From an uncultured Candidatus Saccharibacteria bacterium (GTDB lineage Bacteria > Patescibacteriota > Saccharimonadia > Saccharimonadales > JAGQNJ01): DNA of 62,069 nt. This document shows positions 8,412 through 48,680 of this stretch, piece by piece. Position 1 is the stretch's first letter. Each line of letters begins with the position of its first letter. Under the pieces are notes generated by a model. The model had not been told where the DNA came from and ran no database searches. It saw only the letters and a program-made list of their open reading frames with translations. The DNA lies in NCBI GenBank assembly GCA_964610345.1, contig CAZSVQ010000001.1, positions 280-62,348 of the forward strand, given 5' to 3'. Both the position numbers and the translations under genes were made by a program.

Positions 8412-9023
8412 ATGGAACCAGCAGAATTGAAGGCAGAGGACGCAGCAAAACTGTCCGCAACCGGTAAAAAATATTTTAAATTCATAGAGTTTGACAGTGA
8501 TGAGAATTTAATTTGCGAAATACGTAAACATTATGTCGGGCTATTCTTTATATATTTTACTGGTATTAGTATTACATTTATTGTGGTAATTATGTTTGGC
8601 TTAATTGGGTTCTCGGATATTTTAAGTTCAGGTTTAAGCGGTACTGGCGCACCATCTGGGTCAATAAAGTCGTTAGCAGTGGTTGGCGGTATTATTTTCG
8701 TAATGTTTATTTTAATTGCCATGACCATCCAGGCAATACTTTATACAAACAATGTAATATTTGTAACTTCCGAAAAAATTGCCCAAGTACTGTATATTAA
8801 TTTGTTTAATAGAAAAATTTCACAGCTCAGCATTGGAGACGTGCAAGACGTAACCGTTACCCAAAAAGGAGTTTTGGCGCATATGTTTAATTACGGTACG
8901 TTAGTTATAGAAACGGCAGGCGAGCAACAAAACTACTTGTTTACGTATATTCCAGACCCGTATATGCATTCTAAAGCTATTGTTGGCGCACACGAACGCA
9001 ATCTAGTTAATTACGGCAATTAG
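8412..9023 (+). CDS. Membrane protein with bacterial PH (YdbS/YdbT-like) domain
   Basis: Two TM helices followed by ...SIGDVQDVTVTQKGVLAHMFNYGTLVIETAGE..., which is typical of bPH_2 domains. Confidence 0.45.
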   Translation: MEPAELKAEDAAKLSATGKKYFKFIEFDSDENLICEIRKHYVGLFFIYFTGISITFIVVIMFGLIGFSDILSSGLSGTGAPSGSIKSLAVVGGIIFVMFILIAMTIQAILYTNNVIFVTSEKIAQVLYINLFNRKISQLSIGDVQDVTVTQKGVLAHMFNYGTLVIETAGEQQNYLFTYIPDPYMHSKAIVGAHERNLVNYGN

Positions 9024-15600: not shown

Positions 15601-16401
15601 ATGCCTAGATTACCCATACCCGGTAGTGATGGTGGTCAGTGGGGAGATATCCTCAACGAATACTTAAGTGTCTCCCATAACAATGACGGCACCATAAAAC
15701 CCTCAGCCCTACCACCATCACAACCAAACAATGGCGCTACCGGCGCCACTGGCCCAATAGGCACAATTGGCTCAACCGGTGCTAACGGCCCAATTGGAGC
15801 TACTGGAGCCACCGGAGCCACCGGTGCCACCGGCCCAGACGGAGCAACTGGTACTCAAGGTATTCAAGGCATCCCTGGACCCCAAGGCCCTACTGGCTCA
15901 CCAGGTGCTACCGGAAGCCAAGGCAGCACTGGTGTCTCTGGCTCAACCGGAAGTACTGGATCTACCGGCCCCCAAGGGGCTACTGGCGCCACTGGTCAAG
16001 GAGGATTAATCGCAATTCAGTCGTATAATCCAGCGTCATTACAAACTATGACTGCCAGTGCTGTAGACACGGATATAGATGCTACTAATCTGGCAGTTAC
16101 TTTTACCGTTCCTGCCTCGGGGAGTGTGCTGGTTGTTTTATCTGGTATGGCAAGACGAGAATCGTCCTCTGCTTACCTGCAATGGACAGTACGAGCTTCT
16201 GTGACGACAATTGCCGTTCAAGCGGTTGTGCTTGAGTATACTGCAGAGTCACGTGTTTCTGCCAGAATACTTGTCACTGGCCTCACTCCAGGAGCCTCAA
16301 TAACTTACAAATGGGGCCATAAGGTTATTTCAGGTGTTGGTCGCACCAAGTATGGCGGAGATGCTGGATCTGCTGTTATTGAAGTATGGGCGGCGCCTTA
16401 A
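15601..16401 (+). CDS. Collagen-like triple-helix repeat protein with a conserved N-terminal module and a beta-rich C-terminal domain (BclA-like architecture)
   Basis: [33 protein letters not shown] is followed by 30 uninterrupted G-X-Y triplets (aa 45-134), then a ~130 aa beta-strand-rich domain. No signal peptide. Confidence 0.75.
15733..16002 (+). repeat. G-X-Y (collagen-like) coding repeat, including near-perfect tandem 9-nt GGAGCCACC/GGTGCCACC units
   Basis: [10 protein letters not shown]...[16 protein letters not shown]...[21 protein letters not shown], read from the translation. It is open in several frames, which produces spurious ORFs. Confidence 0.9.
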
Positions 16402-24362: not shown

Positions 24363-25457
24363 ATGTTAAAACTTGATTCAATTGAAATGTCTAGCCGATT
24401 AAAAACATATAATTCTCGGTCAGTTAAGAGGGTAGAGCCACGTAGTCGGGTTAATCACTTAACTAAGCGAGTCGGTATGGATGTCTGGGAGCCAGCGTTA
24501 AAGGACGTAGTTTTTAATAATACTACCGAATCACCTAAAAACACAAAGCACACAACTGACATTAGTGTTAATAATATTGGTACATCTAAAATTACAGATG
24601 TTCAAAACCGCTCAAGTTTTACACCTCGCACCATAAGCCCAAATAAATACATTAACAAAGAGTCGAATAATATAAGCGATTTAGAAGCAGACAGTATGTT
24701 CCGTAAACTTGATTTTTCAGCTTCAGCCAGTGATTGGAAAAAACAAAAAAAATCAAACTTTAATTTTGGTAAATCAAATATAACTAAAGCTGGATTTAAA
24801 AATTTTGCATTATATGGAATGGCCGTAACGGTATTTTTATTTGGCGTGGCAGCAGCGATGAATTCATTTATGACCGATAAAAAGATAGTAGAAGCAGCGG
24901 CAAAACCACAAGAATCAAGTGATCAAGAAGAATTTGGGGGTGCGACAGACGATGCTAGTGACGAATCAAAAACAGATGTAGGAGCATATAAAGTAGCACC
25001 AGATATGCCTAGAGTAATATACATACCAAAACTAAAGGTAAACGCAAGAGTAACAAAAATGGGTATAAAAAATGACGGATCATTAGAAGCGCCAAAAAAT
25101 GTACATGATGCAGGTTGGTATAAAAATAGCTCAAAACCCGGTAGCCCTGGTGGAGCATCTTTGATCGATGGTCATGTATCTGGGCCAACCCAAAAAGGGG
25201 TATTCTATAAGATTGAAACATTAAAGTCTGGTGATGTAATCACGATAGAACGTGGCGATGGTAGTAAATTAGAATACAGTGTTGTCAAGACAGAAGTTGC
25301 TAAAGCAACTGAAACTGATATGGCAAAAATGATGTTGCCTGTTACAGTCGGTAAGCACGGGCTAAACTTAATTACTTGCACTGGTAAGTTTGACTCATCC
25401 ACCAAAACCTACGAAGACCGAGCACTTGTTTATGCAGAGTTTGTAAAAGCTTACTAA
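24363..25457 (+). CDS. Sortase-family transpeptidase (class E/F-like) with a long N-terminal linker and TM anchor
   Basis: Catalytic His (LIDGHVSG), Cys (LNLITCTG) and Arg (DRALVYAEF). Confidence 0.8.
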   Translation: MLKLDSIEMSSRLKTYNSRSVKRVEPRSRVNHLTKRVGMDVWEPALKDVVFNNTTESPKNTKHTTDISVNNIGTSKITDVQNRSSFTPRTISPNKYINKESNNISDLEADSMFRKLDFSASASDWKKQKKSNFNFGKSNITKAGFKNFALYGMAVTVFLFGVAAAMNSFMTDKKIVEAAAKPQESSDQEEFGGATDDASDESKTDVGAYKVAPDMPRVIYIPKLKVNARVTKMGIKNDGSLEAPKNVHDAGWYKNSSKPGSPGGASLIDGHVSGPTQKGVFYKIETLKSGDVITIERGDGSKLEYSVVKTEVAKATETDMAKMMLPVTVGKHGLNLITCTGKFDSSTKTYEDRALVYAEFVKAY

Positions 25458-30245: not shown

Positions 30246-30893
30246 ATGAAGAGGGTTAAAATAACACGCAAAACTAGCACTTTGTTATTAACTGTTGGCT
30301 TTGTGTTGGTAATTATTTTTGCCGGTGCTATATTTTTTAAGAACAAAAAAGAGCCTCAGCCACAAAATGAACCAACAATCACTTATTCTACTGACACACC
30401 AGACGAATCTAAGACCAACGCTGAAAATTATAACTGGAAAGGCGCGTTAGACGAGCCTAAAAAAATAAAAATTAATCAAATAAGTGTGGATGCATTCATA
30501 CAAAAAGCTGGTGTTGATCAAAAAAATCAAGTTGCTGTACCAAATAATGTGCATTTGGCTGGATGGTATAACCAAAGTCAAAAACCTGGCCAAAATGGGC
30601 TATCAATTATTGCTGGCCATGTAACTGGCAAGAAAAGCGACGGCGTATTTAAGCAATTAGGTGTTTTAAAAGCAGGTGATATATTTGAGATAGAACTTGG
30701 TAACGGTGAAGTAAAAAGCTACAAAGTAATCGAAACAAAACAAGTCAAAGAGGCAGAATCTGCCGGAGTGCTATTCTCTCAAAACCCTAAAGTAAAAAGT
30801 CAAGTTAATTTGATAACATGTGGCGGTTCTTTTAATAAAACCACCAATCAATATGATGATCGTATCATCGTTAGTGGTGAACTCCAAGTTTAA
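30246..30893 (+). CDS. Sortase-family transpeptidase (second copy, compact)
   Basis: TM anchor, His (IIAGHVTG), Cys (VNLITCGG) and Arg (DRIIVSGE). Confidence 0.8.
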   Translation: MKRVKITRKTSTLLLTVGFVLVIIFAGAIFFKNKKEPQPQNEPTITYSTDTPDESKTNAENYNWKGALDEPKKIKINQISVDAFIQKAGVDQKNQVAVPNNVHLAGWYNQSQKPGQNGLSIIAGHVTGKKSDGVFKQLGVLKAGDIFEIELGNGEVKSYKVIETKQVKEAESAGVLFSQNPKVKSQVNLITCGGSFNKTTNQYDDRIIVSGELQV

Positions 30894-30966: not shown

Positions 30967-31434
30967 ATGCCTAGACTCCCAATTCCTGGTCAAGACGGTG
31001 GTACCTGGGGTAACTTACTCAATGAGTATTTGAGCGTATCACACAATTCAGACGGCACTATTAAATCGTCCGCTTTGCCGCCGGCACCGACAGATGGGGC
31101 TACCGGCGCTACTGGCCCAATTGGTGCGACCGGTGTTCAGGGTATTCCTGGATCAGATGGAGCAACCGGTGCTACGGGCTCTCAGGGTGTGGTGGGAGAC
31201 CAAGGATTTACAGGAGCGACGGGCCCAACTGGCATAGCTGGTTTGCCTGGTGCCACTGGTGCTGTTGGCGCCACTGGTGCCACAGGCGATAGCGGCACCT
31301 CACGTGTTTGGTTTTATGACACAGGTGATTATATAGAAAAGCCAAATGCACGAATATTTGTTGGCCCAGTTGATCCCGGTACAGAAGGCTTTACCTTAGC
31401 TGACGGTGATATTTGGGAAGACACTAGTGCATGA
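30967..31434 (+). CDS. Short collagen-like repeat protein with the conserved N-terminal LPIPG module
   Basis: [33 protein letters not shown], then about 22 G-X-Y triplets, then a ~45 aa tail. No signal peptide. Confidence 0.7.
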
Positions 31435-32402
31435 CTCGCAAGATTAGGCAAGGTGGCCAGTGGGTACAAGTCAGTGGGGCAAATATTGATTCAGTTGAAG
31501 TAGTGCAAAATTCTGTTGACGCTATCGACCCAAGTAAACTGTATCTTATAGCAAATAGTGTTACTCCGAGTGACTTGGTAACGTTTCGTGTAAATGGCAA
31601 GCTAGGTTCTGGCATCTGGTTCGGTGGCAATGAAATGTGGGTACCACCAGTGCAAGCTGTGGGTGGTGCAGAGACTGATATTATGGTTTCTGGCACCCCA
31701 TATCGGGTTCACACCTTCACTAGTAATCTTGATTTTGAAGTACTTGTCGCTTCACTCAACGTTGAGTATCTAATTGTTGGTGCTGGCGGTAATGGTGGAA
31801 CGGCTAATTCAGTAGGTCTTTATTATTCGGGTGGTGGGGGAGGAGCGGGTGGTGATGTGTTGGCAGGAGTAATCACGCTTGGTAATGGTATTTACGCTTG
31901 CACAGCAGGGGCAGGGTCTGATTCTTCAATAGCGAGCGTAGCGACAGCCACAAAAGGGGCTAATGGAGGTGCTGGGGCAAATCCTAAGGCGGGCAACGGT
32001 GGATCGAATACTAACTACACTGGTGGCGCGGGTCCAAGTTCAGCTAGTAATGTAACCGGTGGCGGTGGTGGTGCTGGGGCATCGGCCAACGGTTCAAATG
32101 GAAGTGTTTCAGGCTCATCAGCATCACAAACAGGAGGTGCCGGGGGAGAAGGGGTGCTCTCGTCTATAACAGGAACAGCTATTGTTTATGGATCTGGTGG
32201 TGGCGGAGGACATGGATATGGCAGCTTTGGAATAGCTCGGGCAGGCGGTACCGGTGCGGGTACAGGTGCAGCAGTCAATAATGCTACTGACCCAATAGCC
32301 AATCGTGGCGGTGGTGGAGGCGGTGCTGCTGGTTACTCTGGCCCGAAGAATGCATCCAATGGTGCTGCTGGAGTTATTATTATTAGGTATCCATTAGCAT
32401 GA
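31431..32402 (+). CDS. Glycine-rich domain protein (paralog 1)
   Basis: [40 protein letters not shown], followed by long GGxGG tracts. Its start overlaps the upstream stop (ATGA). Confidence 0.6.
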
Positions 32403-32412
32403 GTATTACAAA

Positions 32413-33396
32413 GTGAGTAGCAGAAAAATCCGAAACGATGGCCAGTGGGTACAAATAGGTGGCACAGTAGATAGCGTACTGCCAATAACCCAATCTAATT
32501 ATGATGCATTGTCATCTAAAGATCCTAGTAAGATGTATGTTATTACGGATAGTGCTGGGGCAGCCTTAACGGCACAATCCTTTCGTGTCAACCAACGGCT
32601 CGTACAGAAGATAATGGTCGGAGACAATCAACTCTGGCAGCCTGTGGTTTTTGCCACCGGTGGTACAGTTACGGATATTGATGTGGGCGGTGTTATGTGG
32701 AGAGTTCATATATTTACATCGTCAGGGCAACTTGAGGTTTTACAAGATAACTTGAGTATTGAATATCTAGTTGTTGGCGGCGGTGGCGGCGGAGGTGTTC
32801 CATCCGGATACAGTGGCGGTGGCGGTGGTGCAGGGGGTTATCTTGAAGGAGCAATTTCGTTACCAATTTCTGTTATTAATATTTCTGTAGGAAACGGGGG
32901 AGCTGTTGGAAGTCAGGGTCAAAATTCTTCCATCGATTCTAGTGTGATATCGATTGGTGGTGGTGCTGGAGGAAATGGAACTTCAGGTTCTGGAGGATTG
33001 GGTGGATCTGGCGGGGGCGGAACTTATAATTTAGGTTCTGCAGGAGCTGCAACAAGTGGTCAAGGCAATCCTGGCGGTCCCGGAGCAGCAAGTGCGGGTA
33101 TAAGTGGTGGCGGTGGGGGTGCAGCTGGAAGTGGGAGCGAATACGGAAACGGTGGTAACGGACGTCAATCCTCAATTACAGGTACTCTTCAATACTATGC
33201 AGGCGGTGGTGGAGGCGGTCGCTACAGTGGCAGTAGCGGAGGACCTGGTGGTGGCGGCATCGGTGGTGGCGGCGACGGAGGCAAAGGAAGTGCAGCAGTT
33301 GCAGGGACACCAAATTCTGGCGGCGGCGGTGGCGGCGGCGGAACTGCAGCTGCAGGTGGTTCAGGTATAGTAATTGTTCGCTACCAGTTTGGCTGA
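32413..33396 (+). CDS. Glycine-rich domain protein (paralog 2, GTG start)
   Basis: RKIRNDGQWVQI..WRVHIFTSSGQLEVL..IEYLVVGGGGGGG, and it ends GSGIVIVRY as paralog 1 ends AGVIIIRY. Confidence 0.6.
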   Translation: MSSRKIRNDGQWVQIGGTVDSVLPITQSNYDALSSKDPSKMYVITDSAGAALTAQSFRVNQRLVQKIMVGDNQLWQPVVFATGGTVTDIDVGGVMWRVHIFTSSGQLEVLQDNLSIEYLVVGGGGGGGVPSGYSGGGGGAGGYLEGAISLPISVINISVGNGGAVGSQGQNSSIDSSVISIGGGAGGNGTSGSGGLGGSGGGGTYNLGSAGAATSGQGNPGGPGAASAGISGGGGGAAGSGSEYGNGGNGRQSSITGTLQYYAGGGGGGRYSGSSGGPGGGGIGGGGDGGKGSAAVAGTPNSGGGGGGGGTAAAGGSGIVIVRYQFG

Positions 33397-33428: not shown

Positions 33429-34592
33429 ATGGCAAAAATGCGAGAGCAAATGACGTTTCATGTTGTTTCTTTACCTCATACTCAAACAACGCTAGAGTAC
33501 GAGGCTTGTGCTTACACATCAAAGGTTCGTAAATTTTGCAACATGATGAAATCGCTCGGACATACAGTTTACCTTTATGCTTCAGAGGAAAACGAGGCAG
33601 ACGTTGATGAGTTAATAACTACTGCATCAAAAAAAGATCAACAAAAATGGTTTGGCAATAATAACTTTAAGCAAAACTTTTTTAATTTAACTTGGGATGC
33701 AAAAGATGAACATTGGCAAGTTACCAACAAACGTTCCATTACGGCCATAAAAAAACGCATTAGCAAAAAGGATTTTATCTGCTTAATTGGTGGTGTTTGT
33801 CAAAAGCAAATTGCCGATGCTTTTCCGGCACATATGTCGGTAGAATACGGAATAGGCTATGAGGGCGTTTTTGCACCGTACCGGGTTTACGAATCATATT
33901 CACATATGCATTTTGTTCAAGGCAAACTAAATGATGACAATGGTAGATTTTTTGATGCGGTTATTCCTAATTATTTTGAGCCAGAAAACTTCCCTTTCAA
34001 AAATGTAAAAGAAGATTACTTTTTGTTTTTAGGACGATTTATTGAACGAAAGGGTTTAGAAATTGCGGTTGAAGTTACACGCCGGATGGGCAAAAAATTA
34101 GTCATGGCCGGGCAGGGAGTACGTGAAGTTAAAGGTAATAAAATTATTGGTGATAACTTTACCGTAGCAGGTGACCATATTATTCATCTTGGTCATGCTG
34201 ATGTTAAGCAGCGAGCGGCACTACTTCGTAATGCTACGGCCACATTCATGGCTACTACTTATTTGGAGCCGTTTGGTGGCGTAGCAATAGAAAGCTTAAT
34301 GTGCGGGACGCCAGTTATTGCTACTGATTTTGGGGCTTTTGTAGAGAATATTCAACATGGAGTTCATGGATATCGGTTTAGAACAATCGGTGAGGCAGAA
34401 TGGGCGGCAAAAAATGTTCACAAACTAAATAACAAGAAAATCCACGAATATGCTGTTAAGAATTTCAGCGTAGATAGGGTTAAATACCAGTACCAGGCAT
34501 ATTTTGAACAACTGCTAACTTTATGGGAAGATGGTTTTTACTCTAAATGGGACAGGGGTGTATCAAAATATAAACGCTATTTTCGCTCATGA
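33429..34592 (+). CDS. GT-B fold glycosyltransferase (GT4/GT1-like)
   Basis: EPFGGVAIESLMCGTPVIATDFGAFVENIQHGVHGY is an E-x7-E-type GT4 motif. 387 aa. Confidence 0.7.
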   Translation: MAKMREQMTFHVVSLPHTQTTLEYEACAYTSKVRKFCNMMKSLGHTVYLYASEENEADVDELITTASKKDQQKWFGNNNFKQNFFNLTWDAKDEHWQVTNKRSITAIKKRISKKDFICLIGGVCQKQIADAFPAHMSVEYGIGYEGVFAPYRVYESYSHMHFVQGKLNDDNGRFFDAVIPNYFEPENFPFKNVKEDYFLFLGRFIERKGLEIAVEVTRRMGKKLVMAGQGVREVKGNKIIGDNFTVAGDHIIHLGHADVKQRAALLRNATATFMATTYLEPFGGVAIESLMCGTPVIATDFGAFVENIQHGVHGYRFRTIGEAEWAAKNVHKLNNKKIHEYAVKNFSVDRVKYQYQAYFEQLLTLWEDGFYSKWDRGVSKYKRYFRS

Positions 34593-38130: not shown

Positions 38131-39138
38131 ATGCAACAGGAGCCACGCAAAAGATCATGGAATGCTGACATTGTTAATGTTCGGCGAACGTATAGCTCTA
38201 AGCCACAGACTGTTGACAGGGTGAGTATTCCAGTTAGCACCGAAAAACCAACCTCTGCTATTGGCCACTCTGCACTAAAAGCCGTAACCGAGCAAAAAAT
38301 CACCACCAAACATAGAGAAATAAAGCAGGTAGAAGATGTTGACGAGGCAACCTTGGCTGATGTATCTAAAAAGATGTATAGGCCAAATTACTACAAGCAT
38401 TCTCACAAAATACCGATGATGGATCATGTTGGCGAGCTCCGTAGGCGTGCATTATATTGTTTGATAGCACTATTTATTGGCGGAATAATTGGTTATAAGT
38501 TCCAAGACCAAATTATCGCTTGGTTGGTTAAGCCACTCGGTCAACAATTGTTTTACACCAGTCCAACTGGCGGGTTTGATTTTTTAATTAAAATTTGTTT
38601 GTTTTTTGGATTTATTTTGGCTGTGCCAGTGATAATTTATAACTTGTTTAAGTTTATCTCTCCGGCGATTCCGCCTCATGTTACTTATAGCTTTGCAAAA
38701 ATAATTTCTGTTTCTATAGTGCTGGCACTCGCTGGCGTGGCGTTTGCATATTTTGTGAGTTTGCCATCGGCACTTCACTTTTTGAATAATTTTAGCAATG
38801 ACCAAGTCTCGTCATTGATTAGTGCTCAAGAATATTTTAACTTTGTGATGATTTATATGGCCGGCTTTGCCTTGTTGTTCCAGATGCCGTTAGTCTTTTC
38901 TTTTATCAACAAAGTCAAGCCACTTAAACCCTCGCAGTTACTAAAAAAACAAAAAGTTGTTATTTTGGTAAGTTTTATTATCGCAGCAATGTTAACACCA
39001 ACACCAGACCCAATTAATCAAGCCTTAATGGCGGCGCCAATAATTGCTTTATACCAAACTTCAATTGGGGTGGTTTGGCGCGATAACAAACGCGGTTATG
39101 GCAAGCAACAGCGTAACCGGCAACTAGAATTTGCTTAA
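38131..39138 (+). CDS. tatC: Twin-arginine translocase subunit TatC (start uncertain; possible ~95 aa N-terminal extension)
   Basis: The core begins MMDHVGELRRRALYCLIALFIGG and has six TM helices. Alternative starts are at 38374, 38416 and 38419. Confidence 0.8.
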   Translation: MQQEPRKRSWNADIVNVRRTYSSKPQTVDRVSIPVSTEKPTSAIGHSALKAVTEQKITTKHREIKQVEDVDEATLADVSKKMYRPNYYKHSHKIPMMDHVGELRRRALYCLIALFIGGIIGYKFQDQIIAWLVKPLGQQLFYTSPTGGFDFLIKICLFFGFILAVPVIIYNLFKFISPAIPPHVTYSFAKIISVSIVLALAGVAFAYFVSLPSALHFLNNFSNDQVSSLISAQEYFNFVMIYMAGFALLFQMPLVFSFINKVKPLKPSQLLKKQKVVILVSFIIAAMLTPTPDPINQALMAAPIIALYQTSIGVVWRDNKRGYGKQQRNRQLEFA

Positions 39139-40829: not shown

Positions 40830-41003
40830 ATGTTTGGTTTAGGCGTACCAGAACTATTAATCATCTTATTGATTCTTTTGCTTTTGTTTGGAGCCAGCCG
40901 CTTACCAAAGTTGTCTAAGTCGCTTGGTGAATCAGCACGAGAACTCCGTAAAGGGCTAAACGACGACCCACACGGCAAAGACGATTCAAAAGAAAAAAGC
41001 TAA
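40830..41003 (+). CDS. tatA: Twin-arginine translocase subunit TatA/E (57 aa, below the ORF-track cutoff)
   Basis: Translated by hand: MFGLGVPELLIILLILLLLFGASRLPKLSKSLGESARELRKGLNDDPHGKDDSKEKS. This is the canonical TatA TM, hinge and amphipathic helix. Confidence 0.85.
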   Translation: MFGLGVPELLIILLILLLLFGASRLPKLSKSLGESARELRKGLNDDPHGKDDSKEKS

Positions 41004-41035: not shown

Positions 41036-41368
41036 GTGGCTTACACACCAAAAGTTTTATTTGCGACAGGCTATCCGTCGACAACTGGTACGGTATTGTA
41101 TACTGTGCCAGTCGGCGCTAGTGCTATTGTAAAAAATGTTGTTATGACTAATACTACCAGCGTTGATGCTTGGGTGCATCTTTCTGTTGTTCCTCAAGGT
41201 GATTCCTCGCAAGCATCGAACCGTATTCTGGCGGCATACAACGTCCCACCTAATGGTATTTCTACTTTAGATTGTAGTATTGTCGTACCGTCTCAAAGCT
41301 ATTTACACGCTACTAATGGAACTAATAATGCTGTTACCATGACAATTTCTGGAGTGGAGATAACCTAA
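41036..41368 (+). CDS. Small beta-rich protein, first gene of the fibre-like operon (GTG start)
   Basis: 110 aa after the [13 protein letters not shown]. Alternating beta-strand pattern (TVLYTVPVGASAIVKNVVMTN...VTMTISGVEIT). No signal peptide. Confidence 0.55.
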   Translation: MAYTPKVLFATGYPSTTGTVLYTVPVGASAIVKNVVMTNTTSVDAWVHLSVVPQGDSSQASNRILAAYNVPPNGISTLDCSIVVPSQSYLHATNGTNNAVTMTISGVEIT

Positions 41369-41369
41369 T

Positions 41370-41864
41370 ATGGCCGTCAATAGTAGTTTAAATGCGGTTG
41401 ATCCAAGGCCAGTTGTCAGGCGATTGATTGGGCAAGTTAGTGGCTTATCTACTAGTGGCGCAAACTATAGCCCTAATAATCAGATGGGCGGTGAAATCAC
41501 ATTTGCCATGGCTACTAGGGCTTCAGGAGGCTACGGCACAGTAACTACGGCTACAATAATAGATACGGCAAATGTTATCGGCGCGGTAGATTTACATTTG
41601 TTTAGCTCTAGCATTACACCTGCTAATGATAAATCTGCAACCAATTTTTCAGACAGTGCTATGACTCAAAATTATATGGGTACAATATCTTTTCCAGCAC
41701 CAACATCGTTTACTAATAATCGCGGAATCAGCCTATCGGCGATAGGGCTAACGTATAATTGTACATCAACAATTTTATATGGATACCTAACGACACTAAC
41801 ACAACACGGTATCTTTAATTCCGCAACTGACATAACTATCAGCTTAACTACATACCAGTACTAA
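41370..41864 (+). CDS. Beta-rich hypothetical protein (164 aa)
   Basis: Starts 1 nt after the upstream stop. No signal peptide and no recognised family. Confidence 0.5.
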   Translation: MAVNSSLNAVDPRPVVRRLIGQVSGLSTSGANYSPNNQMGGEITFAMATRASGGYGTVTTATIIDTANVIGAVDLHLFSSSITPANDKSATNFSDSAMTQNYMGTISFPAPTSFTNNRGISLSAIGLTYNCTSTILYGYLTTLTQHGIFNSATDITISLTTYQY

Positions 41865-41866
41865 TC

Positions 41867-43093
41867 ATGGCGCTTAATAATAATCTGCCTATTTTACCTC
41901 TAAGACCAAGCGATGCCAACTCTCAGTTTCTTGCTAAAAATCTTATCTTGGCGTATCCAATGCTCTACGGGGGTAATACTCTTAAGAACTATGGATCATT
42001 AGGCGCCCAGGCAGATCTTAACTTAAGTAATGTCAGTAGGGTTCGTCAGAACGGCATAACGAGCCTGTCATTTAACGGAACTTCATCAATAGCGAGCAAT
42101 GCAACCATAAATATGACTGTGCCCCAAAAATGGTCATTCGCTTATTGGGTAAAATTTAATGGTTCGCCTTCGGCAGAGACTAGTTTGTTGACGCTACAGG
42201 GCCCAACTGAAGGGCATTTGCGGGCATGGGCAGATGGTCAAGGTATTTGGGCTTGGCAAAAGCATTCTATCGCCGATGCTTATTCTATTTTGCCAACTAG
42301 TGACTTCCCCACAAACAATACTATGTTAGTTATAGCAGTTTATGACGACCCATTATTGCCACCTGCTCAACTACGAACAAATCAAGGATTAACAAATCAT
42401 CCTTCACAACCGCAATCTTATACAGTTTTTAACGAAGCAACTGGGTCTCCTCTGACTACCGTAAATAGTATATATATTGGTGGCGGGCCTGGTAATTCAA
42501 AATTATTTAATGGTGTTCTGGGACCGGTTTATGTTTGGAGCCGGCCTTTATCTGAGTCAGAGATCTGGCAACTATGGCAGGACCCTTATGCACCGTTTAG
42601 GCGAAATACAGAACAATTAGTTACTCCATCTACTATGGTCAGTTCACAAGGCTCGAGCTTGCAGGGTATCGGTAAATCTACCGGATCATCACCCGTTATA
42701 TCTGATAATTCAGCTTTAGTTATTGGAATTGATGATAATTTAGTAGAACGCAACTATGTAAATGATGGAACTTCTTTAATCAATAGATTCAATGATGATC
42801 TCTACATAAACGATTACTATAATTACCAGGATGTTGCATTAGACTCACTTATGACTGAGTTGACTACACCACCAGAGATTAATATTGTAGATGATTATAG
42901 CTATGCAAATATTCCAAATGACCAGGTCATTGTTAATTCATCAAACATTGGGATAATTGATATTCAAGATAGTTTTCAGTTTGTTTCTGTTCCGACAGAT
43001 TCAGTACTTGTAGAATCTAGTGGAGTATCTACTGTAAGCATAAATGACGATGTGGCATATGTTTCAGAGCCTGGAGAGCAGATAATTATATAA
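41867..43093 (+). CDS. LamG (concanavalin-like lectin) domain protein with an acidic repeat C-terminus
   Basis: WSFAYWVKFNG...LFNGVLGPVYVWSRPLSESEIWQLW is typical of Laminin_G_3. The C-terminus has about three ~20 aa I/V-x-D-rich repeats. Confidence 0.6.
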   Translation: MALNNNLPILPLRPSDANSQFLAKNLILAYPMLYGGNTLKNYGSLGAQADLNLSNVSRVRQNGITSLSFNGTSSIASNATINMTVPQKWSFAYWVKFNGSPSAETSLLTLQGPTEGHLRAWADGQGIWAWQKHSIADAYSILPTSDFPTNNTMLVIAVYDDPLLPPAQLRTNQGLTNHPSQPQSYTVFNEATGSPLTTVNSIYIGGGPGNSKLFNGVLGPVYVWSRPLSESEIWQLWQDPYAPFRRNTEQLVTPSTMVSSQGSSLQGIGKSTGSSPVISDNSALVIGIDDNLVERNYVNDGTSLINRFNDDLYINDYYNYQDVALDSLMTELTTPPEINIVDDYSYANIPNDQVIVNSSNIGIIDIQDSFQFVSVPTDSVLVESSGVSTVSINDDVAYVSEPGEQIII

Positions 43094-43117
43094 AATAGGG
43101 TAAAATAGACGTAAGCA

Positions 43118-44515
43118 ATGAGCCAACAAATACTAAATGACTATATGCCTAACAAGCAAAATGTAGCCGGATTAAAGGGTAGTGTTACTGTGCAGTTATT
43201 TGATGCAAAGTCTAAAAAAGTCCTAGTAGATTATACTAGCGATAACTTTATAGCAAATTTTGCTAAGGAGTATTTTGCTTACCTTGAAAGAGTTAATTTT
43301 AATAGTCAAATGAATAGTTTGTCTCCAAATAGTAATTCTGACATAGCGCCTTATAGTTCTTCGCTAACTGCATTGGTGTTGTCTGATTGTGCAGATAGTC
43401 CTGATCCAGATAACGAATGGATGCTTGCCGGCAATTTGGTTGGCTATTCTACGAAAGCAAATTATTCTGGTGCAGACACAATGCGAGGTACACCTAATGG
43501 GCAATTCTGTGAAACTTCTACTACATCAACTAAGTGGGTTTTTGACTGGCCAACACATTCAGCAAATGGAACAATCAAGTCCATAAGTTGGATGGCAGAA
43601 AATTATCAGGCTTTTTCAAACAATGGCAACGGAAGAGTCCTTAATCTGCCCACAGTTTTAAATAATGGCTCAACTTTGTTAAAGCATAGGGTTGCTCCTT
43701 TTAGCAATAATCAACCAATTTCGCTCATCTCAAACAATCGTCTTGCAACTGGTCAAGGAACTACCGTAAGTGTGTTTGAAGAAAACAATACACCAGTTAC
43801 AACCTTTACTACAATAAGTTGCAGTGGATTAACGTGGGATAAAATAAATGAAAAATTATGGGTAATTAGTGGCAATCAAATTGCATCATACACCCAATCT
43901 GGTTCGATAGTCGATAGTCCTATAAGTATTACACCTAGATCTTATCGGGGCTTAACTTTTGATGGTACTGACCTGTGGACAATAGCAAGTGGTGTTGTAT
44001 ATAGAATATCTCTAGCTGGAGTAGATGTTTCAAGTTTTACACCTAGCTTCGGTACATTAGGAAATTCTAATACATATATAGGAGATGTAGTTTGGGATAA
44101 TTTTAGGTCGGTGTTAATAGTTTTAGCTATTGGCTATAGTTCTTGGAGGTATGGTTTTGGATATGCAACTAATCATGATTATGTTCTTTGCACTCAACAC
44201 TATAATAAAACGGGGGTGGTTTTATCTATGGGAACTTGTATTAACCCTTGGAATGGAAGTAGGAATATATTCACCTTGAACGCAGGGACAGATAGCGGTT
44301 ATGGGGGATCTGCTAGTGATGTGTATAGATATTTTGACATAAAAAGTCCAGATACATTTGCGGTTACTGTGTATTCCGGATCTTTATATCCAACAGGTAA
44401 TCGTATAATGGATATCCGTGCCGATGGCATGGGCTCACGTATTTTATTGCCAAGCCCAATTACTAAAACAAGTGCTCACACGTTCAGGGTTTCTTATACT
44501 CTTACTTATGCCTAA
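43118..44515 (+). CDS. Fibre/adhesin-like paralog A (conserved N- and C-terminal blocks, central propeller-like repeats)
   Basis: Shares KGS(V/I)TV.LF.AK, TKWVFDWPTHSANGTI, LWVISG.QIASY, RSYRGLT(F/Y)DG.DLW and DG(M/L)G...LLPSP(I/V)TK with the next two genes. Confidence 0.6.
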   Translation: MSQQILNDYMPNKQNVAGLKGSVTVQLFDAKSKKVLVDYTSDNFIANFAKEYFAYLERVNFNSQMNSLSPNSNSDIAPYSSSLTALVLSDCADSPDPDNEWMLAGNLVGYSTKANYSGADTMRGTPNGQFCETSTTSTKWVFDWPTHSANGTIKSISWMAENYQAFSNNGNGRVLNLPTVLNNGSTLLKHRVAPFSNNQPISLISNNRLATGQGTTVSVFEENNTPVTTFTTISCSGLTWDKINEKLWVISGNQIASYTQSGSIVDSPISITPRSYRGLTFDGTDLWTIASGVVYRISLAGVDVSSFTPSFGTLGNSNTYIGDVVWDNFRSVLIVLAIGYSSWRYGFGYATNHDYVLCTQHYNKTGVVLSMGTCINPWNGSRNIFTLNAGTDSGYGGSASDVYRYFDIKSPDTFAVTVYSGSLYPTGNRIMDIRADGMGSRILLPSPITKTSAHTFRVSYTLTYA

Positions 44516-44573
44516 TAACCGAACATGTTTTAAACATAATAAATAAAAGTTATACTATTAAAGAATTAAATAT

Positions 44574-45827
44574 ATGTCACAAGATACATTAAATATAACA
44601 AATTTGATAAACAAAATTAAAGGCAGTATTACTGTTGAATTATTTAATGCAAAAACCGGTAAATGTGTTTTAGTAAATAAAGACAATAATTTTATTGCCT
44701 TACCTGGTGTTGATTATTTACGATCCATTCAACGTATAAATTTTAAAAGTACTATGGAATCGTTATATGCGGGGAGTGATACAGATGTTTCTTTGACTAG
44801 TCCTTTCCAGGTTATTTCTCTTTCTACTAATGTTAGTGCTGTTGATCAATCTAAAGAAAGAATAATGCCAGGAATACCTGTAGGATATTCAAATAAAGCT
44901 ACATATTCTGGAAGCGATTCAATGCGGGGCACTCCTAATGGATTATTGTGTAGTACATCACCAACTTTTACAAAATGGGTTTTTGACTGGCCAACACATT
45001 CAGCAAATGGAACAATTGGATCAATTGGGTGGACTATTAACAACACTGCACATACAACACGAATAATAAATTCGTCAAATTTACCACAGTATCCAGCAGC
45101 AAATTCTATATACGTCGCAATTTTACCCCCAGATAAATTTATTGTTGGTAACGGAACAAATATCAAAATTTTTAACAAGGGTGATCTTTCGGAAATTGCT
45201 AATTTTACGGCTATTTCAGCAAATGGTTTAGCATGGGACTCAGCTAACAATAAAATTTGGGTTATAAGTGGCACTCAGATAGCATCGTATGATCAAACTG
45301 GTACTGTGGTAGACTCGCCCATTACAGTTGCCTCAAGATCTTATCGGGGCTTAACATATGATGGATCCGATTTATGGACAACCAATGGCTCAGTTTTGTA
45401 TAAGATTAGTACTTCAGGTACGGACATCAATTCTTATACTAATACTTTAACTACTGAATCTGGTAGCGGGTACGGACAATATATAACTGACGTCGCATGG
45501 GATAATAGAGCTCAGCAAATTCGTATTCTTCATGCTGCATTTAGGGGTGGTGGCTATAATGATTACTATCGTTTGGTGTCGTTAGGCGACATAACTGGCG
45601 GTACATTAGCTAATTATCATGTTGTATTTCCGATTATGTATGGTGGTAATCCCTATCGTTGTTTTGATATCGATCCAAATAATCAAGATATTTTGATACG
45701 TTTCAACAGTACTAATTTTGAAACTAGAGTAGTAGATGGGTTAGGTACATTAGTTTTATTGCCAAGCCCAGTAACAAAAAATAACACACAAACTTTGCGT
45801 GTTACCTATCAAATAGACTACAATTAA
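44574..45827 (+). CDS. Fibre/adhesin-like paralog B
   Basis: Same block structure as paralog A. 417 aa. No signal peptide. Confidence 0.6.
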   Translation: MSQDTLNITNLINKIKGSITVELFNAKTGKCVLVNKDNNFIALPGVDYLRSIQRINFKSTMESLYAGSDTDVSLTSPFQVISLSTNVSAVDQSKERIMPGIPVGYSNKATYSGSDSMRGTPNGLLCSTSPTFTKWVFDWPTHSANGTIGSIGWTINNTAHTTRIINSSNLPQYPAANSIYVAILPPDKFIVGNGTNIKIFNKGDLSEIANFTAISANGLAWDSANNKIWVISGTQIASYDQTGTVVDSPITVASRSYRGLTYDGSDLWTTNGSVLYKISTSGTDINSYTNTLTTESGSGYGQYITDVAWDNRAQQIRILHAAFRGGGYNDYYRLVSLGDITGGTLANYHVVFPIMYGGNPYRCFDIDPNNQDILIRFNSTNFETRVVDGLGTLVLLPSPVTKNNTQTLRVTYQIDYN

Positions 45828-45837
45828 GGTAAGTATT

Positions 45838-47106
45838 ATGAAAAATAATTATGCTAAACAATTTGAAGGAAAACTTTGGTTAGAGCTACGAAATGGAAAT
45901 ACAGGAAAAGTTGAAAATAAAATATCAGTAAAGAACTTTGCAGCTAATCAAACAAATGAATATGGTAAATGGCTGCAAAGGAACTCTTTTAAAACGGGAC
46001 TAAGTGCACTTGGTGTTACGGATACTGATTATTCACCACATCAAGCAGCCAACGCAATGGTATTAACTGATTCAACGCTAGTAGAAGATCCTTCGGGTGA
46101 ATGGTATATGCCTGGAAAAACTATAGGATACGCTATTAAAGCAACATATGCCGGAACGGATATTTGGCGAGGTACAGTAGCTACAACACAATTACAGGCA
46201 ACATCTGCATTAACAAAATGGACCTTCGATTGGCCTACACACGCAGGTAATGGGACAATTGGCTCTGTTGGGTGGGTTGATTCTCAATCGCAAGGATTAT
46301 CAGCAACAGAACCTATTTTTAGATCGACAATGACTATACTATCTGGGCACGGTAGCACAGGTAACTGGAATAATTTTGCGCGAGCCAATAGTTCAACAGC
46401 ATTTGGCAACACAGGCAACACAGTAATTTATGTATTAGATGGTTTAAGTTATGCACAAACTACAACATTCAATGTTAATGCACAATTTACGGCTGTTCGT
46501 GGCATTGCTTGGGACTCTGGCAATAACTTTCTTTGGGTGATCGGTGATAACAGTTCTGTCCGACGAATTGCTGCGTATAATTCATCTGGTGTATTGCAGA
46601 CAGGCCCTTTTGTGGTAACTACAAGGTCGTATATAAGGTTGGCGTATGATGGGTCAGCACTTTGGAGTATCACCCAAGATAGCGGTTCAAATCATACAGC
46701 CTGGAAGTTAAATACCTCAGACGGGTCAGATATGACTAACTTCCCTTTTGTTACAAATACATCTTCAGTTGTTTGCGGTTTAGCTTGGAATGATAATACA
46801 AATACACTTTGGATGCGCTATTCTGGTACAACGGGGTTTCAAGCTTGGGATACAAGTGGTAATAAAAAAGCAGTCGAGATATCTACAAGTGCATTTACAC
46901 CAAGTGCAGGCAATTATGCAAGTAATTTAAATTCTGGTTTAGATTTTGATTTTATTAATAGTTATGAAATTGCCGTTTCTCAAGCAACAAATACTGTCTA
47001 TAAGTGCCGATTAGATGGCATGGGTACGCGTGCTTTATTGCCAAGCCCTGTAACAAAAAATAACACACAAACTTTAAAATTAATCTACCAAATAAACTAT
47101 ACTTAA
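45838..47106 (+). CDS. Fibre/adhesin-like paralog C
   Basis: TKWTFDWPTHAGNGTI, LWVIGDNS, RSYIRLAYDGSALW and DGMGTRALLPSPVTKNNTQTLKLIYQINYT. Confidence 0.6.
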   Translation: MKNNYAKQFEGKLWLELRNGNTGKVENKISVKNFAANQTNEYGKWLQRNSFKTGLSALGVTDTDYSPHQAANAMVLTDSTLVEDPSGEWYMPGKTIGYAIKATYAGTDIWRGTVATTQLQATSALTKWTFDWPTHAGNGTIGSVGWVDSQSQGLSATEPIFRSTMTILSGHGSTGNWNNFARANSSTAFGNTGNTVIYVLDGLSYAQTTTFNVNAQFTAVRGIAWDSGNNFLWVIGDNSSVRRIAAYNSSGVLQTGPFVVTTRSYIRLAYDGSALWSITQDSGSNHTAWKLNTSDGSDMTNFPFVTNTSSVVCGLAWNDNTNTLWMRYSGTTGFQAWDTSGNKKAVEISTSAFTPSAGNYASNLNSGLDFDFINSYEIAVSQATNTVYKCRLDGMGTRALLPSPVTKNNTQTLKLIYQINYT

Positions 47107-47751: not shown

Positions 47752-47982
47752 ATGAACAATTTAGATAACATACAGCAGTTAATGGCTCAAGAAGTTTCGC
47801 GCCGGCAGTTTTTGTTACATACTGGAACTGCATTGTTGGCAATTTTTGGCATTTCGGGTTTAATACGTAATTTAAATTCTATATTTCCACAAAAGGTTGA
47901 TGAATCAGGTGCTTATGGCTGGAATGGATATTCTGGGATAGCAGGCAAAAAAAGCTCTTTGCAAAAGGCAGGTAAATTGTAA
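47752..47982 (+). CDS. 76-aa protein consisting mostly of a twin-arginine (Tat) signal peptide
   Basis: ..AQEVSRRQFLLHTGTALLAIFGISGLI.. matches S-R-R-x-F-L plus an h-region. Its stop overlaps the next start (TAATG). Confidence 0.55.
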   Translation: MNNLDNIQQLMAQEVSRRQFLLHTGTALLAIFGISGLIRNLNSIFPQKVDESGAYGWNGYSGIAGKKSSLQKAGKL

Positions 47983-48680
47983 TGGCACGCTTACCAATTC
48001 CTGGTCAAGATATCGGTACTTGGGGTCAGGTTTTAAATGAATTTTTAAATGTTGGACATAACCCTGATGGTACTCTAAAAATAAGTACTACGCCAGAAAC
48101 TCCAGATGCAAACTCGACTACCAAAGGTAAGCTACGCTTAGCTGGTGATCTTGGAGGTACGGCAGATAGCCCCACAGTTACATCAACCTCATTAACCTCG
48201 GCACTACCGATAAATCAAGGTGGTACAGGTTCGACAACGCAAAACTTTGTAGACATTACAAACAATCAAACCATTGGTGGAACAAAAAGTTTTAGCAGTA
48301 CAGTAAATGCTAGTATAAACGGCACGGCAGACAATGTTACTGGTGTTGTAGCTATCACCAACGGAGGTACCGGCTCTAACACCAAAAATTTTGTTGACCT
48401 TACAACCAATCAAACAATTGCTGGCAGTAAAACCTTTTCTGACGTGATTATTGGTGATATTGCTGGGAATTCTAATAACGTAAATGGGGTTGTGGCTATC
48501 ACCAACGGTGGTACCGGGCAAACTACCCCCGACGCAGCTCTAAATGCGTTACTGCCAAATCAAACAGGCAATAACGGCAGAGTATTGCAAACCGATGGCG
48601 CAACTGCTACCTGGGTTCAACCAGCCACAACAAATCTTGACGATATTTATGCTTTGCAGTGGATGGTAGTCGGCGCCTAA
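47982..48680 (+). CDS. Tail-fibre-like repeat protein with the conserved N-terminal LPIPG module
   Basis: [33 protein letters not shown], then ~44 aa repeats I(T/N)(N/Q)GGTGS.T.NFVD(I/L)T.NQTI.G.K.FS. It ends ..LQTDGATATWVQP.. . No signal peptide. Confidence 0.65.
   Translation: MARLPIPGQDIGTWGQVLNEFLNVGHNPDGTLKISTTPETPDANSTTKGKLRLAGDLGGTADSPTVTSTSLTSALPINQGGTGSTTQNFVDITNNQTIGGTKSFSSTVNASINGTADNVTGVVAITNGGTGSNTKNFVDLTTNQTIAGSKTFSDVIIGDIAGNSNNVNGVVAITNGGTGQTTPDAALNALLPNQTGNNGRVLQTDGATATWVQPATTNLDDIYALQWMVVGA

Follow-up and report, generated by a model that had tools for sequence, protein, structure and literature searches.

An N-terminal module of phage-type fibre proteins in Saccharibacteria and its linkage to Tat genes

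Three dispersed genes in a 62,069-nucleotide stretch of Saccharibacteria DNA (the window) encode fibre-like proteins that begin with the same module of ~35 residues. We found that this module belongs to a very large family that had not been described before and that is missing from Pfam, PHROGs, NCBIfam, and the PDB. In phages, the module also appears to form the start of receptor-binding or depolymerase proteins, judging from what it heads. We propose, with moderate confidence, that it serves fibres of the phage type as a base-proximal docking head, that it was domesticated and expanded in Saccharibacteria, and that the three proteins of the window are paralogous fibres with one attachment point and with differing shafts and tips. 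CPR bacteria, including Saccharibacteria, live attached to the bacteria that host them, and to our knowledge, their means of recognising and holding these hosts are largely unexplained. The module may mark the main host-binding fibre repertoire of Saccharibacteria, with thousands of proteins that are now annotated as "hypothetical" or "collagen-like." It also provides a simple sequence handle for finding fibres throughout a genome and for tracking the swapping of tips with phages.

The three open reading frames are present (Table 1), as a sequence-only reading of the window had claimed, and residues 1–39 of their products align without gaps. Relative to copy 1, the module is 85% identical (at the amino acid level) in copy 2 and 62% identical in copy 3, and 24 of the 39 columns are invariant. 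A six-frame HMM scan of the window finds exactly these three copies (95–98 bits); the next match has E ~1. The reading was right that the conservation is at the protein level, although its estimate of ~70% DNA identity, made by eye, was slightly too high (the pairwise nucleotide identities of the module copies are 57–67%). Between the modules of copies 1 and 2, there are 22 synonymous and 6 non-synonymous codon differences, and third positions are 28% identical. Given the excess of synonymous differences and the low identity at third positions, these are old paralogues that are under purifying selection and not products of recent conversion.

Table 1. Features of the window that are discussed in the text (strand and positions within the 62,069 nucleotides).
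Feature	Position	Strand	Details
Module copy 1 (aa 1–39 of 266-aa protein)	15601..15717	+	HMM 96.6 bits
Fibre gene 1 (266 aa)	15601..16401	+	between pilB (minus strand) and recA
Module copy 2 (aa 1–39 of 155-aa protein)	30967..31083	+	HMM 97.9 bits
Fibre gene 2 (155 aa)	30967..31434	+	stop codon lies within the start of the gene that follows
Two tandem glycine-rich paralogues (323 + 327 aa)	31431..33396	+	PF21722 Gly_rich_2; PHROG 2295
GT4-type glycosyltransferase	33429..34592	+	last gene of the copy 2 operon
tatC (335 aa; N-terminal extension of ~95 aa)	38131..39138	+	PF00902, 187 bits; TIGR00945, 165.9 vs. cutoff of 132.7
tatA (57 aa)	40830..41003	+	PF02416; TIGR01411, 58.4 vs. cutoff of 53.9
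Signal-only mini-protein (76 aa)	47752..47982	+	1-nt overlap between its stop and the copy 3 ATG (TAATG)
Module copy 3 (aa 1–39 of 232-aa protein)	47982..48098	+	HMM 95.5 bits
Fibre gene 3 (232 aa)	47982..48680	+	module, then DUF5907 / BppL_N-type "GGTG" repeats; ends in ...YALQWMVVGA

Downstream of the module, the sequence-only reading had the three proteins diverging completely. Copy 3 is indeed unrelated to copies 1 and 2 (E ~1), and all that copies 1 and 2 have in common there is collagen G-X-Y repeats (53% identity over 78 amino acids). In the first protein, the module is followed by ~30 collagen G-X-Y triplets (aa 45–134) and then by a beta-rich C-terminal domain; in the second, by a short collagen shaft and then by a C-terminal connector motif (...GDIWEDTSA). 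Both proteins exceed the gathering threshold (27.2) of the Pfam collagen family PF01391, with 52.2 bits for the protein of copy 1 and 35.3 bits for that of copy 2. The protein of copy 3 has matches to the fibre-repeat families DUF5907 and BppL_N, both of which are below the Pfam thresholds.

The genomic settings of the three copies are those of cellular genes. Copy 1 is at a pilB/recA locus. Copy 2 lies 3′ of a sortase gene; it is the first gene of an operon that also contains the glycine-rich pair and the GT4-type glycosyltransferase. Copy 3 is beside a P-type ATPase gene. None of the annotated neighbours of the three copies matches a phage hallmark family, and none of the copies is inside a prophage. 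The glycine-rich pair likely encodes the distal parts that are borne by fibre 2, and the same pairing is found at two other loci (L014 and L042). Scans with Pfam, PHROGs, and NCBIfam identified no sorting signal or cell-wall-binding domain in the three fibre proteins. (We also considered the "LPxPG" at residues 4–8 as a sortase motif, and we dropped it because its placement at the N-terminus makes no mechanistic sense.)

As the sequence-only reading had suggested, we searched with HMMs beyond the window, and we found the family in both Saccharibacteria and phages. A profile of the three sequences, when compared with 1.84 billion representative proteins, matched at least 6,094 clusters with E ≤ 1e-3 and 2,648 with E ≤ 1e-10. 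Among the best 150 of the 6,094 clusters, only a handful have a match that does not begin at residue 1, and most of these exceptions have a methionine exactly at the start of the module, which points to mis-called starts. A few proteins (P0005, P0033) contain two or three copies of the module in tandem within one chain. Across genomes, with a single one for each species, our search confirmed 155 stretches, and nearly all of the best 78 loci were labelled as Saccharibacteria, Saccharimonadales, or Patescibacteria. DNA sequencing runs place the organism of the window among Saccharimonadales from wastewater. These 78 loci include 86 module ORFs of 44–1,290 amino acids, and all of them begin with the module. 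Tandem arrays of two to four module genes are frequent at these loci, and the C-terminal endings fall into recurring classes. Also, a search for homologues of residues 1–40 of copy 3 gave eight close relatives.

The motif of the module is M-[AP]-R-L-P-[IV]-P-G-x-D-x-G-x-W-G-x-[IVL]-L-N-[ED]-[FY]-L-x-V-x-H-N-x-D-G-[TS]-[LI]-K, with conserved M1, R3, L4, and P5; R3, L4, P5, D10, W14, and N19 are among its invariant positions. No Pfam, PHROG, or NCBIfam profile covers residues 1–39: the matches cover the collagen or repeat parts, and where a few of them run on into the module, they do so as prolonged alignments to collagen repeats. A profile search of the PDB with the module gave only spurious 11-residue matches, and a fold search of the PDB with the model of the module (Foldseek) gave no neighbour (the best E-value was 8.5). 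AlphaFold2, given an alignment of 78 sequences, models residues 1–12 as an extended arm and residues 13–25 as an amphipathic helix that contains the W-G-x-x-L-N-E-x-L core; H-N-x-D-G-T-x-K then forms a tight hairpin. The pLDDT is 85–90 over residues 11–40.

Among 50,697 deposited phage records, the module is present only in the ~113-kb BRock group of Streptomyces phages (50–60% identity). There, it begins a beta-rich protein (BRock gp186) or a pectate-lyase-type spike (GiJojo gp34), and the module gene is in a tRNA island. A scan of IMG/VR with a 78-row profile identified 22 viral contigs with the module, with GC contents of 34–70%. (A scan of IMG/VR with a narrow profile of 3 sequences gave no contig, which must be an artefact of sensitivity since the 78-row profile found 22.) In 19 viral ORFs, the module is at residue 1, and it is mostly fused to a pectate-lyase-type beta-helix. 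We scanned eight viral module proteins with Pfam, and six have a domain from about residue 36 on (four pectate-lyase/beta-helix domains of PF12708/PF13229, one GH5 cellulase, and one polysaccharide deacetylase). Two of the module-bearing viral contigs (L094 and L097) were annotated with PHROGs. In L094, the module gene is immediately 3′ of the tape-measure gene, and its product matches tail-spike PHROGs; in L097, the module gene is 3′ of a gene for a 2,027-aa tape-measure protein and three other ORFs. In both of these contigs, then, the module gene belongs to the tail-tip cassette that follows the tape-measure gene, unlike in the BRock group and unlike the window copies with their cellular neighbours. 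Position 7 of the module is V or I in phages and P in Saccharibacteria. We looked for a hub or base family that is common to the module phages and the Saccharibacteria loci and found none; the only other family that they share is a glycosyltransferase.

In the receptor-binding and depolymerase proteins of tailed phages, the N-terminus is the end that is attached to the particle. As the module heads proteins of this kind in phages, it is probably the base-proximal docking end, by analogy with phage receptor-binding proteins. For example, BppL_N (PF18338) of the lactococcal phage TP901-1 is an N-terminal anchor domain that plugs into BppU. The module is similar to the anchors of phage receptor-binding proteins and tailspikes (such as BppL_N) in that a short conserved N-terminus is followed by interchangeable shafts and by receptor-binding or enzymatic domains, and also in its location, in both annotated viral contigs, in the tail-tip cassette 3′ of the tape-measure gene. 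The module differs from these anchors in that it has no sequence or fold relation to any that has been described and in that most of its members are chromosomal genes of Saccharibacteria, outside of prophages. The sequence-only reading had noted that the module might simply be the N-terminus of a well-characterised phage tail-fibre family inside prophages. We found that the module does occur on phage tail proteins, but the family is not a characterised one and the window copies are not in prophages. For phage biology, the module would define a new class of N-terminal anchor on tailspike-type depolymerases, from hosts of 34–70% GC.

The module genes also show modularity. Where a module protein has the ending GD[IV]W.[DI]T.., as in copy 2, a gene for a separate distal or tip protein always follows (at −3 to +28 nt). 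This constant arrangement suggests that the fibres, like those of phages, combine the products of several genes. (The C-terminal endings also hinted at direct fusions of module proteins to the glycine-rich domain, which BLAST did not confirm.) In addition, two variants of one locus (L081 and L082, which are >99% identical) differ by a 2.1-kb cassette that is flanked by a 79-bp duplication of the 5′ end of the module. The DNA of the module thus also acts as a recombination handle for the exchange of cassettes. Population variants swap cassettes with their reading frames intact.

We propose that the module entered a Saccharibacteria chromosome and grew into a multigene family. The head would be held constant, while the shafts, of collagen or GGTG repeats, and the tips, which can be globular domains, glycine-rich proteins, or enzymes, would be exchanged, partly by recombination within the DNA of the module. 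The three fibres of the window would all plug into one common partner. Given the collagen repeats and the tailspike folds, the module fibres presumably form trimers, and we infer that they are located at the cell surface.

The closest working analogue of the module fibres, although not a homologous one, is the mosaic adhesive trimer (MAT) of Bdellovibrio bacteriovorus, which has 21 phage-like trimeric fibres with mosaic tips (Caulton et al., 2024, PMC10769870). The N-domain of MAT is invariant, has no homologue in the PDB, and is presumed to bind a surface element (PMC10769870). In both cases, a bacterium that lives on bacteria has a multigene family of phage-like fibres with an invariant N-terminus and swappable tips. 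In contrast to the module, which is a signal-less arm-helix-hairpin of 35 amino acids with Tat-linked genes, MAT fibres carry a Sec signal, and their beta-rich N-domain has ~130 amino acids.

A second parallel is with the BclA-type fibres of Bacillus, which have a short N-terminal targeting motif, a collagen region, and a globular C-domain. They share with the protein of copy 1 this three-part layout and the lack of a secretion signal. They differ in the N-terminal motif, and the context of sporulation and the exosporium is absent here.

Instead of docking to a partner, the module could be a folding or trimerisation nucleus of the shaft (a registration cap) that has no external partner, with export and anchoring achieved by other means. 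This seems unlikely to us. The module does precede obligate trimers (collagen repeats and beta-helix spikes), but shafts with unrelated folds would have no need of one shared nucleus, and phage spikes usually trimerise via C-terminal or intramolecular chaperone domains. In the model, the amphipathic helix (residues 13–25) could build a short three-helix bundle. Also, the tandem copies of the module in P0005 and P0033 imply that a free N-terminus is not always required. Nevertheless, the near-absolute position of the module at residue 1 and the conservation of M1, R3, L4, and P5 fit a recognised end more than an internal zipper.

If the module is a docking head, then the fibres must also reach the surface. 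The sequence-only reading had stated that none of the three proteins has a Sec signal, and indeed there is no hydrophobic N-terminus in any copy: across the first 60 amino acids, the maximum hydropathy of 15 residues is 0.33–0.43 for the three copies, versus 1.85 for the neighbouring mini-protein. The absence of a hydrophobic stretch rules out a Sec or lipoprotein signal on the fibre proteins. The module itself is ruled out as a Tat signal because it has one arginine only and no h-region.

The module genes are linked to the genes of the Tat system. When we clustered the neighbours of the 86 module genes, the commonest families were TatC, a protein of ~70 amino acids (the mini-protein), a glycosyltransferase, and TatA. 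By tblastn, TatC and TatA are each present in 18 of the 78 module loci (mean length of 9.6 kb), whereas a gene with one copy per genome of ~1 Mb would be expected in ~0.75 loci; this is an enrichment of ~24-fold that shared ancestry inflates. There are at least 10 different gene orders among the Tat-linked module loci.

The mini-protein looks like a Tat-type signal-anchor with little behind it. In the window, it has SRRQFL at residue 16, ~20 hydrophobic residues (hydropathy of 1.85–2.2), a basic R/K, and a tail that is rich in Gly and Tyr; that is, it has the layout of an S/T-R-R-x-F-L motif, a moderately hydrophobic h-region, and a basic c-region. It is the only Tat-type N-terminus within the 62-kb window, according to a scan for the motif plus hydropathy. 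The plan of the family is similar: [ST]-R-[RK]-x-F-L, then a stretch of ~20 residues of moderate hydrophobicity, one basic residue, and a short tail that ends in G-Y-G-x-S-x-Y-G-G. Across the family, which has at least 342 clusters, all of them unnamed, only the first arginine never varies; the second can be replaced by K, A, or Q, so the mini-protein is not a canonical twin-arginine signal. The profile TIGR01409 scores 13.6 in one member (versus a cutoff of 16.7) and does not match the mini-protein of the window. No A-x-A cleavage site follows the helix of the mini-protein, which implies that the signal would remain as an anchor. The mini-proteins match NF038009 ("twin-arginine translocation system-associated protein") from end to end, with 22.1 bits for the window mini-protein and 47–60 bits for its relatives. 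NF038009 is also a profile of ~70 amino acids with a Tat-operon association, and it has no assigned function; as its cutoff is 100, the mini-proteins (22–60 bits) are relatives and not members.

With an HMM for the mini-protein, we identified 25 members, spread over 23 of 79 loci. Ten loci, among them that of copy 3 in the window, have the mini-protein gene directly 5′ of a module gene. The fibres that are encoded beside a mini-protein have 221–1,033 amino acids. Long fibres might surpass the known sizes of Tat cargo. In several lineages, the mini-protein and module genes overlap or are tightly spaced, which suggests translational coupling. On the other hand, the majority of the module genes, copies 1 and 2 among them, do not adjoin a mini-protein gene, and we found no mini-protein gene in the phage contigs that bear the module. 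At one locus (L058), the mini-protein gene shares its reading frame with the module gene, from which a TAG and one codon separate it. When we modelled the read-through product with AlphaFold2 (with the TAG as Gly), the fold of the module was retained, and there was no confident contact (pTM of 0.25); the mini-protein half had no alignment depth, and we count this model as uninformative. No natural fusion of a mini-protein to a module was found among 46 candidates.

As a reciprocal test, we examined eight independently sampled mini-proteins, which were chosen solely by the length of their contigs. Seven of the eight are within 8 kb of tatA and/or tatC, typically in the order tatA-tatC-mini, so the mini-protein is primarily a member of the Tat operon. 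A module gene lies within 8 kb in four of these eight loci and is absent from the other half. Thus, module genes are strongly enriched at Tat/mini-protein loci, and the linkage is facultative.

The fibres of phages fold and oligomerise while still in the cytoplasm, and the general route by which folded proteins leave it is Tat. Few Saccharibacteria have Tat, and few substrates are predicted for it there (PMC6031116). There are precedents for Tat hitchhiking, in which a partner supplies the signal (HybOC, DmsAB, and PaoABC; PMC4273604), and Rieske proteins are a precedent for uncleaved Tat signals that serve as anchors (PMC13673990). Together with the linkage of the genes, these considerations make hitchhiking the most attractive route to the surface. 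We propose that the fibres, like phage parts, reach their fold within the cytoplasm; that the module binds the signal-only mini-protein of ~70 amino acids; that TatA and TatC export the complex of fibre and mini-protein, with the fibre as hitchhiker; and that the uncleaved signal of the mini-protein acts as a membrane anchor. We favour this route over the others and yet hold it only tentatively, because the interaction is a hypothetical one, the second arginine is variable, half of the sampled Tat loci are free of module genes, and shared ancestry inflates the statistics. In the same speculative spirit, the module could be a universal docking peptide for a Tat signal that is supplied in trans, such that a relaxed, single-arginine signal-anchor carries folded trimeric fibres and holds them at the membrane.

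The resemblance to HybOC, DmsAB, and PaoABC is that signal-less cargo is encoded beside a signal-bearing partner and tatA/tatC. The differences are that the putative carrier here has ~70 amino acids with no passenger domain and a variable second arginine, and that the cargo would be long fibres instead of redox enzymes. If the module does couple fibres to Tat, then this would be a new use of Tat, in which phage-type structural oligomers are exported via a free-standing signal, and it would provide a testable model for how domesticated phage parts reach the cell surface. One small protein would give an ultra-small epibiont a plug-and-play display of fast-recombining fibres for host recognition.

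The other possibility for export is that the module targets the fibres to a different route or anchor (the cell wall, the S-layer, a pilus-type machine, lysis, or vesicles) and that the proximity to Tat reflects a shared variable region. We doubt this, and we rate it about as low as the idea of a trimerisation nucleus. Copies 1 and 2 adjoin pilB and sortase genes, not Tat, and sortase genes recur around the sampled mini-protein loci; however, neither a sorting signal nor a cell-wall-binding domain was found in the three proteins. Similarly, module genes are absent from half of the sampled Tat loci, and the mini-protein, being tied first to the tatA-tatC operon, may be a mere subunit or substrate of Tat. 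Yet a shared variable region would have to account for the 24-fold enrichment of Tat across at least 10 gene orders and very different fibres, and also for the overlaps and tight spacing that suggest translational coupling of mini-protein and module genes in several lineages.

Returning to our preferred reading, the sequence-only interpretation of the module as a common docking or targeting domain, for one base structure or one export route, fits all of our data, and we regard it as partly supported, with indirect evidence for each half. The docking half is backed by the viral tailspike-type enzymes that the module heads and by the tail-tip cassette in the two annotated contigs, and the export half by the clusters with tatA/tatC and the mini-protein.

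Finally, we give very little credence to the view that the three genes are leftovers of phage tail fibres (cryptic prophage debris or morons) with no function in the cell: although the module and several of the shaft and tip elements have phage relatives, all of the ORFs are intact, synonymous differences clearly outnumber non-synonymous ones between copies 1 and 2, phage hallmark genes were not found nearby, several copies are at housekeeping loci in many lineages of Saccharibacteria, and the exchange of cassettes between population variants preserves the frames.

We also considered known surface structures of Saccharibacteria as the base of the fibres. Cryo-ET of the wastewater Saccharibacterium M. 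amalyticus revealed a "lance" (PMC11880426). The Mycosynbacter lance is a conceivable structure for this purpose, but nothing ties it to module genes. The thin filaments of M. amalyticus are Pam pili, which are a separate system (PMC13278184).

The glycosyltransferase that is common to module phages and Saccharibacteria is of the GT4 type, as in the copy 2 operon. Its family is found in nine module loci, and it also adjoins the module gene in a 130-kb phage contig.

Two variants of one Saccharibacteria locus (L081 and L082), which are over 99% identical, are distinguished by a 2.1-kb insertion in L082. The insertion is flanked by a 79-bp direct duplication, which corresponds to codons 1-26 of the module. 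Upstream of the insertion, the remnant is a truncated module stub; downstream of it, the fibre gene is intact. This arrangement appears to reflect cassette exchange, with module DNA as the recombination handle. Also, the module is found in tandem copies within single proteins (three in P0005, of 523 aa, and two in P0033, of 129 aa, both from our profile search). So, to judge from these sequences, the module can fold as an internal repeat and does not strictly depend on a free N-terminus.

In phages, some annotated starts lie ahead of the module. In gp186 of Streptomyces phage BRock, the module methionine is at position 9001 of the locus, 210 nt downstream of the annotated start, and the annotated start overlaps the tRNA-Lys gene gp187. 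To judge from these two observations, the start in the record was probably placed upstream of the true one. The annotated start of GiJojo gp34 is likewise 15 codons ahead of the module methionine.

Besides the module, a glycosyltransferase is the sole family that module-bearing phages and Saccharibacteria loci have in common. The enzyme encoded last in the copy-2 operon is 41% identical over 364 aa to a homologue on a 130-kb viral contig (L102), where it lies about 4 kb from a module gene. The glycosyltransferase may add sugars to the fibres.

The Tat/mini-protein locus repeatedly has sortase genes no more than a few kb away, and one sortase gene lies immediately 5' of copy 2. The module's residues 4-8 (L-P-x-P-G) bear a loose resemblance to the LPxTG sorting motif, though their place at the N-terminus speaks against a conventional sortase mechanism.

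Other components of the system could be encoded near tatA. Of the six genes in the operon that separates tatA from the mini-protein/copy 3 pair, three are tandem paralogues that match PHROG 25763, and another encodes a 110-aa protein that matches PHROG 1276. (Both are phage families without an assigned function.) A hub, or additional cargo, of the same system could be among these products. In these Saccharibacteria, TatC has a long N-terminal extension: in the window's protein (335 aa), the Pfam TatC match begins only at residue 98, and relatives are as long as 410-417 aa. This extension could be a domain that receives cargo or a carrier.

Coordinates of features at the module and Tat loci
Feature	Position	Remark
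Six-gene operon	window 41036-47106	
Sortase genes	window 24363-25457, 30246-30893; L081 7010-7663; L086-L089	
Glycosyltransferase	window 33429-34592; L102 14112-15215	
TatC with extension	window 38131-39138; L002 2975-4207; L017 2242-3495	Saccharibacteria
2.1-kb insertion	L082 8229-10410 (versus L081 8229-8307)	75-aa ORF, 504-aa LamG protein, 85-aa ORF
BRock gp186	L079 8791-9738	module-bearing
High-GC locus	L028 6001-9833	contig labelled Galbitalea sp.; 61% GC

Finally, at the high-GC locus, the module gene is followed by an overlapping 687-aa gene, an 87-aa mini-protein, and a protein whose N-terminus (beginning GFTIVELLIVIVV) resembles that of type IV pilins. Either the system reaches into Actinobacteria or this contig is mis-binned.
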